NCBI GenBank assembly: GCA_965228875.1
Contig: OZ245843.1
Location: 3,826,616-3,890,615 of the forward strand
Direction of reading: 5' to 3'
DNA length: 64,000 nt
Source: Thalassobaculaceae bacterium
Lineage (GTDB): Bacteria; Pseudomonadota; Alphaproteobacteria; Thalassobaculales; Thalassobaculaceae
A program made the position numbers and the translations under genes. The notes below the pieces were generated by a model. The model was not told where the DNA came from, did no database searches, and saw nothing but the letters and a program-made list of their open reading frames with translations. This document shows positions 15,514 to 19,509 of this stretch, piece after piece; the stretch's first letter is position 1, and every line of letters starts with the position of its first letter.

Positions 15514-18204
15514 GTGTCCGCCGAGCCGTCTTCGCCTGCCTCCTCCGATCCGGACGCACGGATCGCGGCCCGCGCCGCCGGCGCGACGCCGATGTTCCAG
15601 CAGTATTTCGAGGTCAAGCGCGCCCACCCGGACGCGCTGCTGTTCTACCGCATGGGCGACTTCTACGAGCTGTTCTTCGAGGACGCCGTGGCCGCCGCGC
15701 GGGCGCTGGACATCACGCTGACCCAGCGTGGTCAGCACCAGGGCGAGCCGATCCCGATGTGCGGCGTACCGCACCACAGCTCCGAGGGATACCTGGCGCG
15801 GCTGATCCGCCAGGGTTTCCGGGTGGCGGTCTGCGAACAGACCGAGGACCCGGCCGAGGCGAAGAAGCGCGGCGGGAAGGCGGTGGTGAAGCGCGAGGTC
15901 ATCCGCGTGGTCACGCCCGGCACCCTGACCGAGGACACGCTGCTCGACGCGCGGCGACCGAACTACCTCGCCGCCCTGGCCGAGGCCGGTGGCGCGTTGG
16001 GCCTCGCCTGGGTCGATCTGTCCACCGGCGATTTCCAGACCCAGCCGGTCGACGGCCGCGGCCTGGAGGCGGCGCTGGCGCGGCTGGCGCCGTCGGAACT
16101 GATCCTGTCGGAGAAGCTGTACGGCGATCCGGGCCTGGAAGGGGGCCTCGCCGAGGTCAGGGACATCGCCCATCCGATGCCGGGCGCCCGGTTCGACAGC
16201 GAGAACGGACGCCGCCGGCTGGAGACCGCCTATGGGGTCAGCGCGCTCGACGCGTTCGGCGCCTTCTCCCGGCCCGAACTGGCGGCGGCCGGAGCGGTGG
16301 TCGACTATCTCGACCTGACCCAGAAAGGCAAGCGGCCCCGGCTGGCGGCGATCCGCCGCTGGTCGCCCGGCGGGGTGATGGAGATCGACGCCGCCACCCG
16401 CCGCAACCTGGAACTGACCCGCACGCTGTCGGGTGAACGGCGGGGCAGTCTGCTCGCCACCATCGACCGCACCCTGACCGGGGCGGGAGCGCGGCTGCTC
16501 ATGGCCCGCCTGTCGGCGCCGCTGACCGATCCGGCGGCGATCGACGCGCGGCTGGACGGCGTTTCCTTCTTCCTGGAGGCGGAGCGCGCCCGGCGCGATC
16601 TGCGGGAGATCCTCGCCCGCATTCCGGATATCGACCGGGCCCTGTCGCGCCTGGCCCTGGATCGCGGCGGGCCGCGCGACCTGGCGGCGATCCGCGGCGC
16701 CCTCGCCGAGATCGGACCGATCCGCGAGGCGGTGGCCCGCGCGCCTCTCAGCACGCCGCCGGCGGCCGTCGCCCGCGACCTCGACGATCTCGGCCGGCAC
16801 GACGAACTGGTCGGCCTTCTGGGCCGGGCCCTGTCCGAGGATCTGCCGCTTCTGGCCCGCGACGGGGGGCTTGTCGCGCCGGGCTACGCGCCGGAGCTGG
16901 ACCGGCTGCGCGGCCTGCGCGACGAGAGCCGGCGGATGATCGCCGCCCTGCAGGCCAGGTACGCGGGCGAGACCGGGGTGTCGGCGCTGAAGGTCAAGCA
17001 CAACAACGTGCTCGGCTATTTCATCGAGGTCTCGGCGACGAACGGCGACAAGGTGATGGGCCGCGACGGCTTCATCCATCGCCAGACCATGGCCAACGCC
17101 GTGCGTTTCTCCACCGTCGAGCTGGGCGAGCTGGAGAAGGAGCTGTCGACGGCGGCCGACAAGGCGCTAGCGGTCGAGATGGAGGTGTTCGCCGACCTCG
17201 TCGCGAGGGTCCTGGAGACGGCGGACGCCATCGCCATCGCCGCGGCCGCGCTCGCCCGGCTGGACGTGGCGGCCGCGCTGGCCGACCTGGCGGCGGCGCG
17301 CGACTGGTGCCGGCCGGCGGTGGATGACGGTCTCGGCTTCGAGGTGGCCGCCGGGCGTCATCCGGTGGTGGAGGCGAGCCTGCCGGACGGGCCGGGCGCC
17401 TTCGTCGCCAACGGCTGCACCCTGGTGCCCGACGACCGGGTCTGGCTGGTCACTGGCCCGAACATGGCGGGCAAGTCCACCTTCCTGCGGCAGAACGCGC
17501 TGATCGCCGTGCTGGCGCAGATCGGCTCCTTCGTGCCGGCCGCCTCGGCCCGGATCGGTGTGGTCGACCGGCTGTTCAGCCGGGTCGGCGCCGCCGACGA
17601 CCTGGCGCGGGGCCGCTCCACCTTCATGGTCGAGATGGTGGAGACGGCGGCGATCCTGAACCAGGCGGGCGCGCGGGCGCTGGTGATCCTGGACGAGATC
17701 GGCCGCGGCACGGCGACCTTCGATGGCCTCTCCATCGCCTGGGCAACCGTCGAGCACCTGCACGAGAGCAACCGCTGCCGCGCACTCTTCGCCACCCACT
17801 ACCACGAGCTGACGGTCCTGGCCGACCGGCTCTCGGCGCTGTCCTGCCACACCATGGCGGTGAAGGAGTGGAAGGACGACATCGTCTTCCTGCACGAGGT
17901 GGTGGCGGGAGCGGCCGACCGCTCCTACGGGATCCACGTCGCCAAGCTGGCCGGCCTGCCGGGCGCGGTGATCGACCGAGCCGGCGAGGTGCTGGAGCGG
18001 CTGGAGACGGGCGAGCAGGGCAAGGCGGCGACCACCCTGATCGACGACCTGCCGCTGTTCAGCGCTGCCGCCCCGAAGCCGCGGTCCGCCGAGCCGGCGG
18101 GCCCGACCCCGCTGGAGGCGGCGGTCCGCGCGCTGAACCCGGACGAGATGACCCCGCGGGAAGCGCTCGATGCTTTGTATGCGCTAAAAGGGCTTGTTAG
18201 CTGA
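15514..18204 (+). CDS. mutS: DNA mismatch repair protein MutS
   Basis: [42 protein letters not shown]. Confidence 0.98.
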
Positions 18205-18245
18205 AGCTGAATAGCGGCTCAGTTTGCAGTGAGCTGCTGCGACGG

Positions 18246-18292
18246 CTACCATATCTAGATTTTGTAATAATGTTTCACACAAAATCTATTGA
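18246..18292 (+). promoter_or_regulatory. tandem NrdR-box-like sites upstream of the tRNA
   Basis: CTACCATATCTAGATT (18246) and ACACAAAATCTATTGA (18277) compared with consensus acaCwAtATaTwGtgt; starts 31 bp apart. Confidence 0.55.
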
Positions 18293-18376
18293 ACATCAGG
18301 CCCTTTTCCAGGATCTTTAAATCTTACATGGCCAAAAAGAAGGGCCGCCAAGTTTGACGGCCCGTTGCCTCTCACT

Positions 18377-18480
18377 GGAGGCGTGGCTGAGTGGTTTATA
18401 GCACCGGACTCAAAATCCGACGGGGGTACGGCTCTCACACCTAAGGCCCCCCGTGGGTTCGAATCCCACCGCCTCCGCCA
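18377..18480 (+). tRNA. atypical tRNA: serine-type body with CAA (Leu) anticodon
   Basis: Acceptor GGAGGCG/CGCCTCC, G73, encoded CCA; D arm GCTG-AGTGGTTTA-TAGC; anticodon arm CCGGA-CTCAAAA-TCCGA; 32-nt variable region; T arm GTGGG-TTCGAAT-CCCAC. Confidence 0.9.
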
Positions 18481-18486
18481 TTTCCT

Positions 18487-18516
18487 GGGTGGTCCTTCGG
18501 GACCACCCTTTTTCTT
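18487..18516 (+). terminator. intrinsic terminator of the tRNA
   Basis: GGGTGGTCC-TTCG-GGACCACCC followed by TTTTTCTT. Confidence 0.9.
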
Positions 18517-18596
18517 ACGTTTTCACGTTAGCAAGCCAACAAATTCAAATCGACTCGATTCTGCCCCGATTCGATTCGCCAGTAAAGAATAAAAAT

Positions 18597-18620
18597 GCCA
18601 TTTTAATTGAATAAAATGGC
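18597..18620. promoter_or_regulatory. inverted repeat (putative operator) over the start of the small ORF
   Basis: GCCATTTTA-ATTGAA-TAAAATGGC, perfect 9-bp arms; the right arm contains the ATG. Confidence 0.55.
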
Positions 18621-18864
18621 TACTCATTCAAAATCTTCTCGCGGCAGAGGTCGGCCGAAGAACGAGACAGACACCGTACAGATCACGCTCGCTGTACCGC
18701 CGAGATTGCATGCCTATCTCCGATATCTGGCACAGAACACGATGATGGGACCGTCGGCCCCAGCTGTGGCTCTATATGTGTTGACTAAGCAATTGGAAGA
18801 AATGCGGTTATCCGGCTATCAAGAGCCTGAACTGCCCAGTAACAACTCACCAGAAAATCAATAA
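18616..18864 (+). CDS. small putative ribbon-helix-helix DNA-binding protein
   Basis: 82 aa; RGRGRPK basic motif, beta-like VQITLAV, then two predicted helices; AT-rich codon usage. Confidence 0.6.
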   Translation: MATHSKSSRGRGRPKNETDTVQITLAVPPRLHAYLRYLAQNTMMGPSAPAVALYVLTKQLEEMRLSGYQEPELPSNNSPENQ

Positions 18865-18865
18865 A

Positions 18866-19459
18866 CTAGGGCCGGCCCGTCCTGAGCGTGGCATCGATCA
18901 GTCGGGTGATCGCCGCGCAGTAGGGGGCTGGATCCGCTCCGCCGGCGATCGCCAGGGCGGCCCGGTCGAAGGCGGCGGACAGACAGTCGGCCAGGGCGTC
19001 GAGCTCGGCCGGGTCGATCCGCGGCATCGCGGCGTCGAGCCCCCGGCGCAGGGTGTCGCCGCCCTGCTCCCTGTCCAGCGCCGCCATGGCTTCCGGCCCG
19101 AGCACGGCCGGCCCGTCCAGCAGCAGCAGTCGGGCCCGTCCGGGCTCCGTCATCGCCGCGAAATAGGCGCCGGTTCCCTCGATCAGCGCCTGGCGCGGCG
19201 AAATCTCCGGTCCCGTCGCCCGTTCGATGGCGCCGGACAGGGCGGCGGCCTCGGCGGCGACCACGGCCCGGAACAGGTCGGCCTTGTCGGCGAAGTGATG
19301 GTAGAGCGCGCCCCGTGTGACCCTGGCGGCGGCCACGATCTCCGGCGTGCCGGTCTCCCCGTATCCCTTCTCCACGAACAGCGTGCGGGCCGCGGCGATC
19401 AGCGCCGCCTTGGTCGCGGCCGTGCGGGACTCGTTCGATCGGCGCGATGTCTGTTGCAT
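18866..19459 (-). CDS. TetR-family transcriptional regulator
   Basis: [10 protein letters not shown]...[12 protein letters not shown] helix-turn-helix. Confidence 0.92.
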
Positions 19460-19509
19460 ACATACAGCCTGTATGTTAATTCGCATTCACTTACATACAA
19501 ACTGTACGT
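19460..19509. promoter_or_regulatory. two TetR-type operators between the divergent tetR and VOC genes
   Basis: ACATACAG-C-CTGTATGT (perfect, 19460-19476) and ACATACAA-A-CTGTACGT (19493-19509). Confidence 0.75.

Follow-up and report, generated by a model that had tools for sequence, protein, structure and literature searches.

A type II transfer RNA (tRNA) gene at positions 18377-18480 of the DNA analysed here combines, as judged from its sequence, a body of the bacterial tRNA-Ser type with an anticodon arm of the tRNA-Leu(CAA) type. The DNA, hereafter called the window, is a stretch of 64,000 nt from a Thalassobaculaceae bacterium (assembly GCA_965228875.1, contig OZ245843.1, positions 3,826,616 to 3,890,615). 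Genome comparisons indicate that the gene lies in a short, horizontally acquired insert, that it belongs to a maintained family of tRNAs, and that it is part of a family of mobile cassettes. The reading we prefer, which follows from identity rules and is held with about as much belief as doubt, is that this is an intact acquired tRNA that would be charged with serine and would read UUG as serine at a low level.

Structure and detection of the tRNA

The cloverleaf, identity bases, long arm, encoded CCA and coordinates given for the gene in a preliminary description of this DNA were all present in the sequence. The acceptor stem (GGAGGCG/CGCCUCC, 7 bp) is followed by U8 and G9. The D stem is formed by G10:C25, C11:G24 and U12:A23 together with G13.U22, and the D loop of 9 nt holds G18G19. 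The anticodon stem has 4 bp and a C27.A43 mismatch; the anticodon CAA, claimed for 18411-18413, was confirmed in the loop CUCAAAA. The T arm consists of a 5-bp stem (GUGGG/CCCAC) and the loop UUCGAAU. At the identity positions the tRNA has G1:C72, G2:C71, A3:U70, C11:G24, the Levitt pair G15:C48 and the discriminator G73, after which CCA is encoded at 18478-18480. U8 is unable to pair with C65, and the acceptor/T geometry is the canonical 7/5 that had been described (7-bp acceptor, 5-bp T stem), unlike that of the allo-tRNAs discussed below. The extra (variable) arm measures 32 nt, as against 15-21 nt in the type II tRNAs that are the host genome's own.

The Rfam tRNA model matched positions 18377-18477 with 57.5 bits (gathering score 29, E 1.6e-11), and this was the only Rfam family match within the window. 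ARAGORN called a tRNA-Leu(caa) when introns were allowed, excising 11 nt as a false intron; its default run overlooked the gene, probably because of the overlong extra arm. Automatic annotation had been expected to name the gene tRNA-Leu(CAA); the default ARAGORN run instead passed it over. A tRNA-Sec reading was ruled out by the 7/5 geometry, by the D arm (3-4-bp stem, 9-nt loop) and by the loop CUCAAAA, which is not CUUCAAA; the hallmarks of selC are 8/5 geometry, a 6-bp D stem and a UCA anticodon. The geometry, the anticodon loop and G73 likewise excluded a tRNA-Tyr reading.

Serine versus leucine identity

The host genome is a single contig of 4.96 Mb with 67.8% GC, in which Rfam detected 48 tRNAs and ARAGORN 52 tRNAs and a permuted transfer-messenger RNA. 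Its normal tRNAs include Leu(CAA) of 87 nt, Leu(CAG/GAG/UAG), Ser(CGA/UGA/GGA/GCU) and Tyr, so that separate normal tRNA-Ser(CGA) and tRNA-Leu(CAA) genes are both in the genome, as anticipated. A tRNA-Leu(UAA) was not found by ARAGORN in the whole genome. In a crude set of 2531 long open reading frames (ORFs), picked by codon-position GC, UUA was used 0.10 times and UUG 3.44 times per 1000 codons, and UUG made up about 3.6% of the Leu codons. A search for the N-terminal tRNA-binding arm of seryl-tRNA synthetase (SerRS) found one SerRS in the genome; no extra synthetase was seen by this search, which gave no match within the insert. Five ARAGORN calls (C1:255373, 1930557, 2722626, 3929980 and 4268351) lacked Rfam support; because they also fall in high-GC, coding-looking sequence they are probably false positives.

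The tRNA of the window and the host tRNA-Ser genes have in common a GGAG... acceptor, G73, G15/C48, the layout of the D loop (AGUGGUUUA in the window tRNA) and the placement of G18G19, and the T stem-loop is identical to that of host Ser(UGA). The host tRNA-Leu genes have a GC... acceptor, A73 (all four), A15 and a shifted G18G19; the D loop reads AAUUGGUAG in Leu(CAA), Leu(GAG) and Leu(CAG) and AACUGGUAG in Leu(UAG). By eye, the extra-arm stem of the tRNA is bordered at its base by a single unpaired C on either side, an arrangement that it shares with host Ser(UGA), Ser(CGA) and Ser(GCU); in the host Leu tRNAs, two bases 3' of that stem are unpaired.

The host genome and its relatives supplied 26 tRNA-Ser and 25 tRNA-Leu sequences for profiles, from which the anticodon and the extra arm were excluded. 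The 5' part of the tRNA scored 9.2 bits with the Ser profile and gave no hit with the Leu profile, and the part comprising the T arm, acceptor and N73 scored 24.3 bits with Ser as against 8.7 bits with Leu. The proposal that the body is of the Ser and not the Leu type was therefore upheld by the profiles of both halves and by comparison with the host tRNAs. For every other member of the family described below the Ser profile likewise outscored the Leu profile, with 3' scores that are understated because two 3' bases were clipped.

Serine identity is independent of the anticodon, which is no identity element for SerRS (PMC9976931). Bacterial leucyl-tRNA synthetase (LeuRS) relies on A73, A15:U48 and elements of the D loop (PMC9976931; PMC7609411); it needs neither the anticodon nor the long arm, and G73 is a known antideterminant for it (PMC9976931).

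The base call

The possibility of a sequencing error at base 18412 was checked in contigs assembled from individual runs. A contig of run X1 (1476 nt, depth 24) and one of run X4 (489 nt, depth 8) each covered the whole tRNA with no differences, and both therefore carry the same CAA. The two runs belong to one study; a third run, X3, has a gap over the anticodon.

A maintained family of CAA tRNAs

One genome per species, about 185,000 in all, was searched with a pattern made up of a Ser-type 5' half and, after it, CTCAAAA. GGA at positions 1-3, C11, G24 and the anticodon loop were prescribed by this pattern, and the 3' partners and G73 were left free. The pattern matched 34 loci, seven of which are alphaproteobacterial homologues with CAA, G73, extra arms of 25-33 nt, a GGGG/CCCC stem and a near-identical T arm. 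Their hosts are Mesorhizobium, Sphingomonadales, Rhodobacterales and Alphaproteobacteria metagenome-assembled genomes (MAGs), Rhodophyticola porphyridii, Breoghania sp. and a Bradyrhizobium japonicum strain. Three further loci, in delta, gamma and Gemmatimonadales MAGs, are more distant, and the remainder are either Ser-like CAA tRNAs of normal length from other phyla, A73 being present in some, or 5' halves that are truncated.

The seven homologues, the window tRNA and four more distant tRNAs were aligned (A1, 12 sequences). Standard pairs occupied 98% of 300 cells, 13 of 25 pairs changed on both sides, and the covariation score was matched by none of 500 shuffles; when the 3' partners were slid as a control, only 42-60% paired. 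Pairing was 100% in the acceptor and T stems and 93% of cells in the extra-arm stem. G73, G1:C72, G2:C71 and A3:U70 were invariant in all 12 sequences. The 27:43 mismatch occurs in just two of the 12; a 4-bp anticodon stem is thus no trait of the family, and the superwobble idea (PMC13092985) was not built upon. The preliminary description would have been refuted if all close homologues had CGA; the seven diverged homologues have CAA and keep the cloverleaf by compensatory changes, but CAA was required by the search, which therefore cannot show that CGA relatives are lacking.

A motif resembling CCCUSAGAAG was seen in the extra-arm loop of six long-arm members (A1 and locus L259), the window tRNA having a partial version, CACCUAAGG. 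We know of no aminoacylation rule that accounts for it.

Other matches of the scan were of different kinds. Three tRNAs of Chloroflexota and Acidimicrobiia MAGs (L063, L076 and L077) have a Ser-like 5' half (GGAG..., C11, GAGYGG D loop) with CAA and A73, and may represent the normal tRNA-Leu design of those phyla or another hybrid. At six loci (L061, L062, L066, L067, L079 and L091) a tRNA-Ser 5' half ends inside the anticodon loop (…CTC|AAAA…) and is followed by AT-rich DNA; these broken halves look like scars of elements that integrate in the anticodon loop of tRNA-Ser(CGA). A metagenome survey of anticodons, in which 121 loci were read from the matches listed, contained no member of the family and was uninformative, because its pattern also fits ordinary tRNA-Leu(CAA), tRNA-Lys and others. 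A first pattern scan of viral sequences gave no matches. A second, with a D-arm pattern, gave three type II tRNAs, none of the cassette family; on two of the viral contigs (L256 and L257), one phage-derived type II tRNA has GUA (a Tyr anticodon) with G73 and the other has CUA (amber suppressor type).

Insertion at the mutS/tetR junction

The features of the region are listed in Table 1. GC content was 0.57 in the bin 18001-19000, the only bin in which it dropped, and about 0.68 in the flanks. A match to the 3' end of mutS was present in eight of ten same-genus genomes, and in seven of these eight the gap between mutS and the TetR gene is 2-51 bp, compared with 677 bp in the host genome. No homologue of the 104-nt tRNA was detected in 40 relatives searched, the best matches there being ordinary 90-nt tRNA-Ser genes of 68-73% identity. 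A surrounding genomic island or prophage was excluded, because the departure in composition and synteny is confined to about 680 bp. As to the origin of the insert, no plasmid match was obtained, and among phages only the tRNA part matched (71%, a Bacillus phage).

Table 1. Features of the tRNA insert and its flanks (positions of the window)
Feature	Position	Strand	Basis or remark
Type II tRNA, Ser-type body, 104 nt	18377..18480	+	Rfam RF00005, genome tRNA comparison, Ser/Leu profiles, covariation
Anticodon CAA (reads UUG), loop CUCAAAA	18411..18413	+	Cloverleaf reading, Rfam; unchanged in contigs of two runs
Extra (variable) arm, 32 nt	18421..18452	+	Unpaired C, G5/C5 stem round a 20-nt loop, unpaired C
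mutS, 896 aa, left flank	15514..18204	+	Pfam MutS_I-V domains; last codons unlike those of congeners
Lower-GC insert, ~680 bp	18189..18865		blastn against mutS 3' loci of eight same-genus genomes, junctions, GC
52-nt stretch with inverted repeat	18243..18294	+	Own-genome search; 88% identical to site upstream of nrdJ-like gene
GC-rich leader hairpin, ends 13 nt before tRNA	18342..18363	+	Terminator-like on minus strand; family flanks
Intrinsic terminator (9-bp stem, 4-nt loop, T run)	18487..18518	+	7 nt past CCA; inverted repeat
CGAYTCGATTC direct repeats (GATTCG motif)	18551..18577	+	Between terminator and small ORF
Small ORF, 82 aa + stop, lower GC	18616..18864	+	Homologues at equivalent place in sister modules
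TetR-family regulator, right flank, convergent with mutS	18866..19486	-	Pfam TetR_N, TetR_C_41

One congener (G005) carries an unrelated AT-rich insert of about 1 kb at nearly the same point (L035 1888-2905), with a duplicated piece of the mutS 3' end, about 23 nt long, as a direct repeat on its two sides. The end of mutS thus looks like an integration hotspot in the genus. In the window, the mutS junction shows scrambled partial repeats of the target.

The second site of the 52-nt stretch (G000:C1:132176-132227) lies upstream of an nrdJ-like ribonucleotide reductase gene. The stretch includes a perfect inverted repeat of 10 nt (18256-18265 / 18279-18288) and may be an operator or promoter common to the tRNA and the nrdJ-like gene. 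Within it, TTGTAA (18262-18267) and CTATTG (18286-18291), separated by an 18-nt spacer, form a possible promoter. The nrdJ-side copy was also seen in contigs of other runs, with loose ends at 18243 and 18291.

The host genome has a single IS1595 transposase (C1:3,806,384-3,807,337), which lies outside the window, about 38 kb ahead of the tRNA. Its DNA is 68-70% identical to copies in two genomes that also carry cassettes (G390 and G583). Just past its stop a TCGACTCG...CCGATTCGCCA motif was noted, which by eye resembles the repeats that separate the terminator from the small ORF in the window. The host IS1595 element (C1:3806384-3808159) carries a low-GC passenger ORF of 210 aa and no tRNA cassette. 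No IS1595 transposase lies directly beside the tRNA unit of the window, the upstream neighbour being mutS.

The mobile cassette and its small protein

The order leader hairpin, tRNA, terminator, GATTCG-type repeats and homologous small ORF is present in the window, in Rhodophyticola, in the Alphaproteobacteria MAG (L081) and in four genomes designated G390, G683, G583 and G108. The GC-rich leader hairpin ends 8-14 nt before the tRNA in all members, each of which has its own terminator, and GATTCG-like motifs were recognized by eye at the matching place in sister modules. Homologues of the 82-aa ORF follow the tRNA in Rhodophyticola (blastp, E 6e-7) and in L081 (tblastn, E 3e-6).

The surroundings differ from host to host. 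An IS1595 transposase lies directly upstream of the G390 module (Pfam DDE_Tnp_IS1595, E 7e-46), and an IS1595-type transposase with 70% DNA identity over 852 nt to the host copy precedes the G583 module. In the Mesorhizobium MAG the tRNA is preceded by a full tyrosine integrase and, after that gene, a small ORF that matches HARE-HTH weakly, and past the tRNA come a DUF5906 protein and other phage-like genes. According to Pfam matches, the Breoghania tRNA is flanked by GmrSD and an S24/LexA-type repressor, the Bradyrhizobium tRNA has weak IS1-like transposase matches and a PemK/MazF toxin nearby, and the gene after a Myxococcota tRNA encodes a ribbon-helix-helix protein of the HicB family. In Rhodophyticola, only the tRNA and the small ORF occupy a short low-GC patch, so the minimal unit may be the cassette itself.

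In three of four islands (L099, L100 and L101) the small ORF upstream remains open through the hairpin and the whole tRNA without a stop, always in the frame of tRNA base 1; the Bradyrhizobium ORF stops before the hairpin.

The 82-aa ORF gave no Pfam hit at E up to 1, no sequence hit in the PDB, no relative among the 45-144-aa proteins of a 5.8-billion-protein index, and only two PHROG matches (E 0.13-0.14). In its structure model an extended segment at the N terminus is followed by two helices, and pLDDT is >90 over residues ~21-60. The best two Foldseek hits were to DNA-bound ArtA, a ribbon-helix-helix regulator, with a probability of 0.77-0.80 and a non-significant E of 0.77. The product is a candidate ribbon-helix-helix-like DNA-binding protein. 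The ORF itself contains one UUA codon and, counted by eye, at least two UUG codons, despite the missing tRNA-Leu(UAA).

Sister tRNAs found without regard to the anticodon

Two probes were used that left the anticodon free. In the first, a family-specific DNA pattern with anticodon NNN was applied to 401 genomes of the order that holds Bradyrhizobium, and two genomes were hit: Bradyrhizobium itself (CAA) and G390, whose tRNA has the GGAGGCG acceptor, G73, CCA, leader hairpin, terminator and small ORF with the anticodon UUA. The second used profiles of the small protein, on the 401 genomes of that order again and on 401 of the class. Thirteen places outside the host genome were found, ten of them at E up to 1.4e-6, and at six of the 13 a tRNA lies directly upstream on the same strand.

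Three genomes contributed Ser-type tRNAs: G390 (UUA), G108 (UUA, 117 nt to N73) and G583 (CCU, 116 nt to N73, after the IS1595-type transposase). Each has G73 on a body of the Ser type, the extra arms measuring 26-46 nt, and none has a serine anticodon. The other tRNAs are class I. G683 has one of 73 nt with anticodon GGA and U73 (L262 1886-1958, minus strand); it would read a serine codon and has no long arm, and with U73 it shows the reverse kind of mismatch. G321 has two, GUU with G73 and UGU with A73, which look Asn-like and Thr-like, respectively. The seven places lacking a tRNA include an empty hairpin-terminator pair and other hairpin RNAs.

Proposed decoding of UUG as serine

If the tRNA is active, a promoter upstream of the hairpin would drive its transcription, to be followed by processing. 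The single canonical SerRS of the host would then charge it through the long arm, the acceptor stem and G73, ignoring the anticodon, and G73 together with the missing A15:U48 would keep LeuRS off. EF-Tu would bring the charged tRNA to UUG, where competition with the resident tRNA-Leu(CAA) would lead to low-level replacement of leucine by serine. The sister cassettes would act likewise at UAA stops (anticodon UUA) and at AGG (CCU).

Several points weigh against this reading. To our knowledge, no tested substrate of SerRS or EF-Tu offers a precedent for a 32-nt extra arm with a 20-nt loop. The default ARAGORN run made no tRNA call at 18377-18480, in the window or in the whole genome, and the single-sequence minimum free energy fold of the tRNA is not a cloverleaf (z-score -1.26). 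A consensus promoter scan of 18150-18900 returned no sites, so the promoter proposed within the 52-nt stretch is possible by resemblance only, and transcription could be stopped by the leader hairpin, which ends 13 nt short of the tRNA. This copy, which has no adjoining transposase or integrase, may be a stranded fragment. The CAA common to the homologues, like the other columns prescribed in the scan (GGA at 1-3, C11, G24 and the anticodon loop), is no independent evidence of constraint, since the scan pattern fixed it, and the anticodon-blind sample is small (n=3 Ser-type tRNAs). The slot in the cassette is not reserved for mismatched tRNAs, as three of the six tRNA-bearing places have class I tRNAs and seven of the 13 places have none. 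A constitutive mistranslator would be costly, because active allo-tRNAs killed E. coli when induced, and many allo-tRNAs were inactive in translation when tested, according to the results reported in PMC5389517.

Alternative explanations

The tRNA might be made, and perhaps charged, without decoding, serving the element in some other way: as a signal for the processing or stability of a transcript, as an RNA with a regulatory or decoy function, as the substrate of a tRNA-dependent enzyme, or as a harmful partner of the toxin-antitoxin kind. We regard this as unlikely, although it is an alternative to be taken seriously. It would fit the constant company of the leader hairpin and the small gene of DNA-binding type, the non-tRNA hairpin RNA or empty slot at four of the ten stronger small-protein loci, the ORF that stays open through hairpin and tRNA in three islands, and the extra-arm motif of the six members, which aminoacylation rules would not need. 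Many allo-tRNAs and irregular tRNAs chargeable with histidine are, moreover, unused in translation and linked to transposons and toxin-antitoxin loci (PMC5389517). Against this role stand an anticodon loop that is canonical throughout (C32, U33, A37, A38), a T stem-loop equal to that of a housekeeping tRNA-Ser, and the encoded CCA. The four stems and the extra-arm stem are, furthermore, kept by compensatory change, as a translating tRNA requires and beyond what a processing signal needs. The anticodons CAA, UUA and CCU also fall in the codon classes of allo-tRNAs that decode in E. coli.

It is rather improbable that the family functions elsewhere and the copy in the window is an inert remnant of a transposon or island, stranded at an integration hotspot and either silent or expressed too weakly to matter. 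The absence of an adjoining transposase or integrase speaks for such a remnant, the one IS1595 element being some 38 kb away with another passenger gene, as do the scrambled target repeats at the mutS junction, the different AT-rich insert with a duplicated mutS 3' end at the same site in G005, and the promoter scan without a site. Yet tRNA, terminator, repeats and small ORF are all intact, Rhodophyticola equally has just the tRNA and the small ORF, and the upstream stretch that is 88% like the DNA before a housekeeping-type gene would provide a native-looking promoter.

A broader view of serine decoding, which we put forward as speculation and judge somewhat more doubtful still, is that portable recoding cassettes of about 0.6 kb (hairpin, interchangeable tRNA, repressor-like protein) spread Ser tRNAs by IS1595-type transposons and integrative islands, with the tRNA as active and potentially toxic cargo. 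On this conjecture the targets UUG, UAA and AGG would be codons that are rare in GC-rich hosts, and the family would have originated independently of the acidobacterial allo-tRNAs and converged with them. The tRNA could be the RNA toxin of an addiction or abortive-infection module, which the hairpin and the small protein would restrain, or else a switchable source of proteome-wide changes of leucine, stop and arginine to serine.

That the gene is an odd-looking tRNA-Leu(CAA), charged by LeuRS and acting as a second UUG reader brought by a mobile element, is very improbable. The anticodon is CAA, and the anticodon arm and the first bases of the extra arm equal those of many genuine tRNA-Leu(CAA) genes; among the metagenome matches listed, 57 of 103 well-formed tRNAs were genuine tRNA-Leu(CAA) with A73 that share this arm. 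The UUA and UUG codons of the small ORF, in a genome without tRNA-Leu(UAA), would also suit a leucine tRNA. The body speaks against it: G73 and not A73, G15:C48 and not A15:U48, G2:C71 and not C2:G71, G18G19 placed as in Ser tRNAs, one and not two unpaired bases 3' of the extra-arm stem (by eye), and a Leu profile that gave no hit on the 5' side and fell far below the Ser profile on the 3' side. Sister tRNAs with the same body read stop and Arg codons, and G73 is the LeuRS antideterminant already mentioned (PMC9976931).

That the gene is a tRNA-Ser(CGA) altered by an error of sequencing or assembly, or by a very recent dead G35A mutation, can be dismissed almost entirely: CAA is one transition from CGA and the host Ser(CGA) loop differs at that base only, but the contigs of two runs match exactly, the genome retains a separate intact tRNA-Ser(CGA) whose acceptor stem differs and whose arm is 20 nt shorter, the diverged homologues of seven genomes all have CAA (which the search required), and none of the three relatives from the anticodon-blind probes has a Ser anticodon.

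Relation to known tRNAs

Within the host, Ser(CGA) (C1:4419204) and Ser(UGA) (C1:1272085) share with the window tRNA the identity pairs, G73, the D-loop layout and the encoded CCA; they differ in having a Ser anticodon and an extra arm of 16-21 nt, in lacking the C27.A43 mismatch and in not lying in an insert absent from congeners. Host tRNA-Leu(CAA) (C1:4074915-4075001) has the same loop CUCAAAA and differs in A73, the GCC... acceptor, A15, the placement of G18G19 and its length of 87 nt; it is identical or 98% identical in eight of ten congeners and 91-92% identical in two of 1.5 Mb.

The closest parallel is with the allo-tRNAs of Mukai et al. (2017, Nucleic Acids Res 45:2776; PMC5389517). 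These also combine Ser identity elements with a non-Ser anticodon and occur near transposon-related and toxin-antitoxin genes. Those with 9/3 geometry target AGA/AGG, UUA/UUG/CUA/CUG and UAA, a codon set into which the CAA, UUA and CCU of the cassette tRNAs fall, and allo-tRNAs with GAG and UAA anticodons put Ser at CUC/UUA in E. coli, where their induction was lethal (PMC5389517). They differ from the window tRNA and its relatives in an 8/4 or 9/3 and not 7/5 acceptor/T geometry, in extra arms far shorter than the 25-46 nt of the cassette tRNAs, and in their hosts, which are mainly Acidobacteria, Clostridia and phages as against Alphaproteobacteria. A further difference is that the cassette tRNAs sit in a fixed unit together with a leader hairpin and a small-protein gene, in some cases next to IS1595 transposases.

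The yeast CUG-clade tRNA-Ser(CAG) and a human tRNA-Ser-AGA G35A variant are eukaryotic chromosomal genes, not mobile bacterial cassettes, and in the yeasts the codon has been reassigned genome-wide. Both resemble the window tRNA in a Ser body with a foreign anticodon (PMC6041473; PMC12993449). Such a combination is workable because SerRS ignores the anticodon. The tRNA-ProA/ProRSx system of Streptomyces and relatives brings its own dedicated synthetase, unlike the window tRNA, with which no extra synthetase was found. It has in common a natural disagreement of identity and anticodon and a supposed role in regulated mistranslation (PMC10404621).

Searches of the open-access literature on natural bacterial tRNA-Ser(CAA), mobile missense suppressors and tRNA passengers of IS1595 gave no description of the cassette family. 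Compared with mismatched tRNAs of the allo-tRNA kind, what is new is the canonical geometry, the giant extra arms, the defined mobile cassette and the new host group.

Significance

Natural tRNAs whose identity and anticodon do not match are raw material for changes of the genetic code and for regulated mistranslation. Few bacterial cases are known to us, namely the allo-tRNAs and the tRNA-ProA family. The tRNA of the window has an ordinary 7/5 shape of the kind that the translation machinery accepts, and it stands in a complete, cultured-type genome that retains the normal tRNAs; relatives of its cassette target stop and arginine codons. Surveys of the genetic code would undercount such tRNAs, because ARAGORN misses them by default and naming by anticodon alone hides the mismatch. 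The strain is a direct test bed. Should the tRNA carry serine and read UUG, mobile elements would be spreading codon-specific mistranslation among Alphaproteobacteria, and the same codon classes would have been targeted twice independently.

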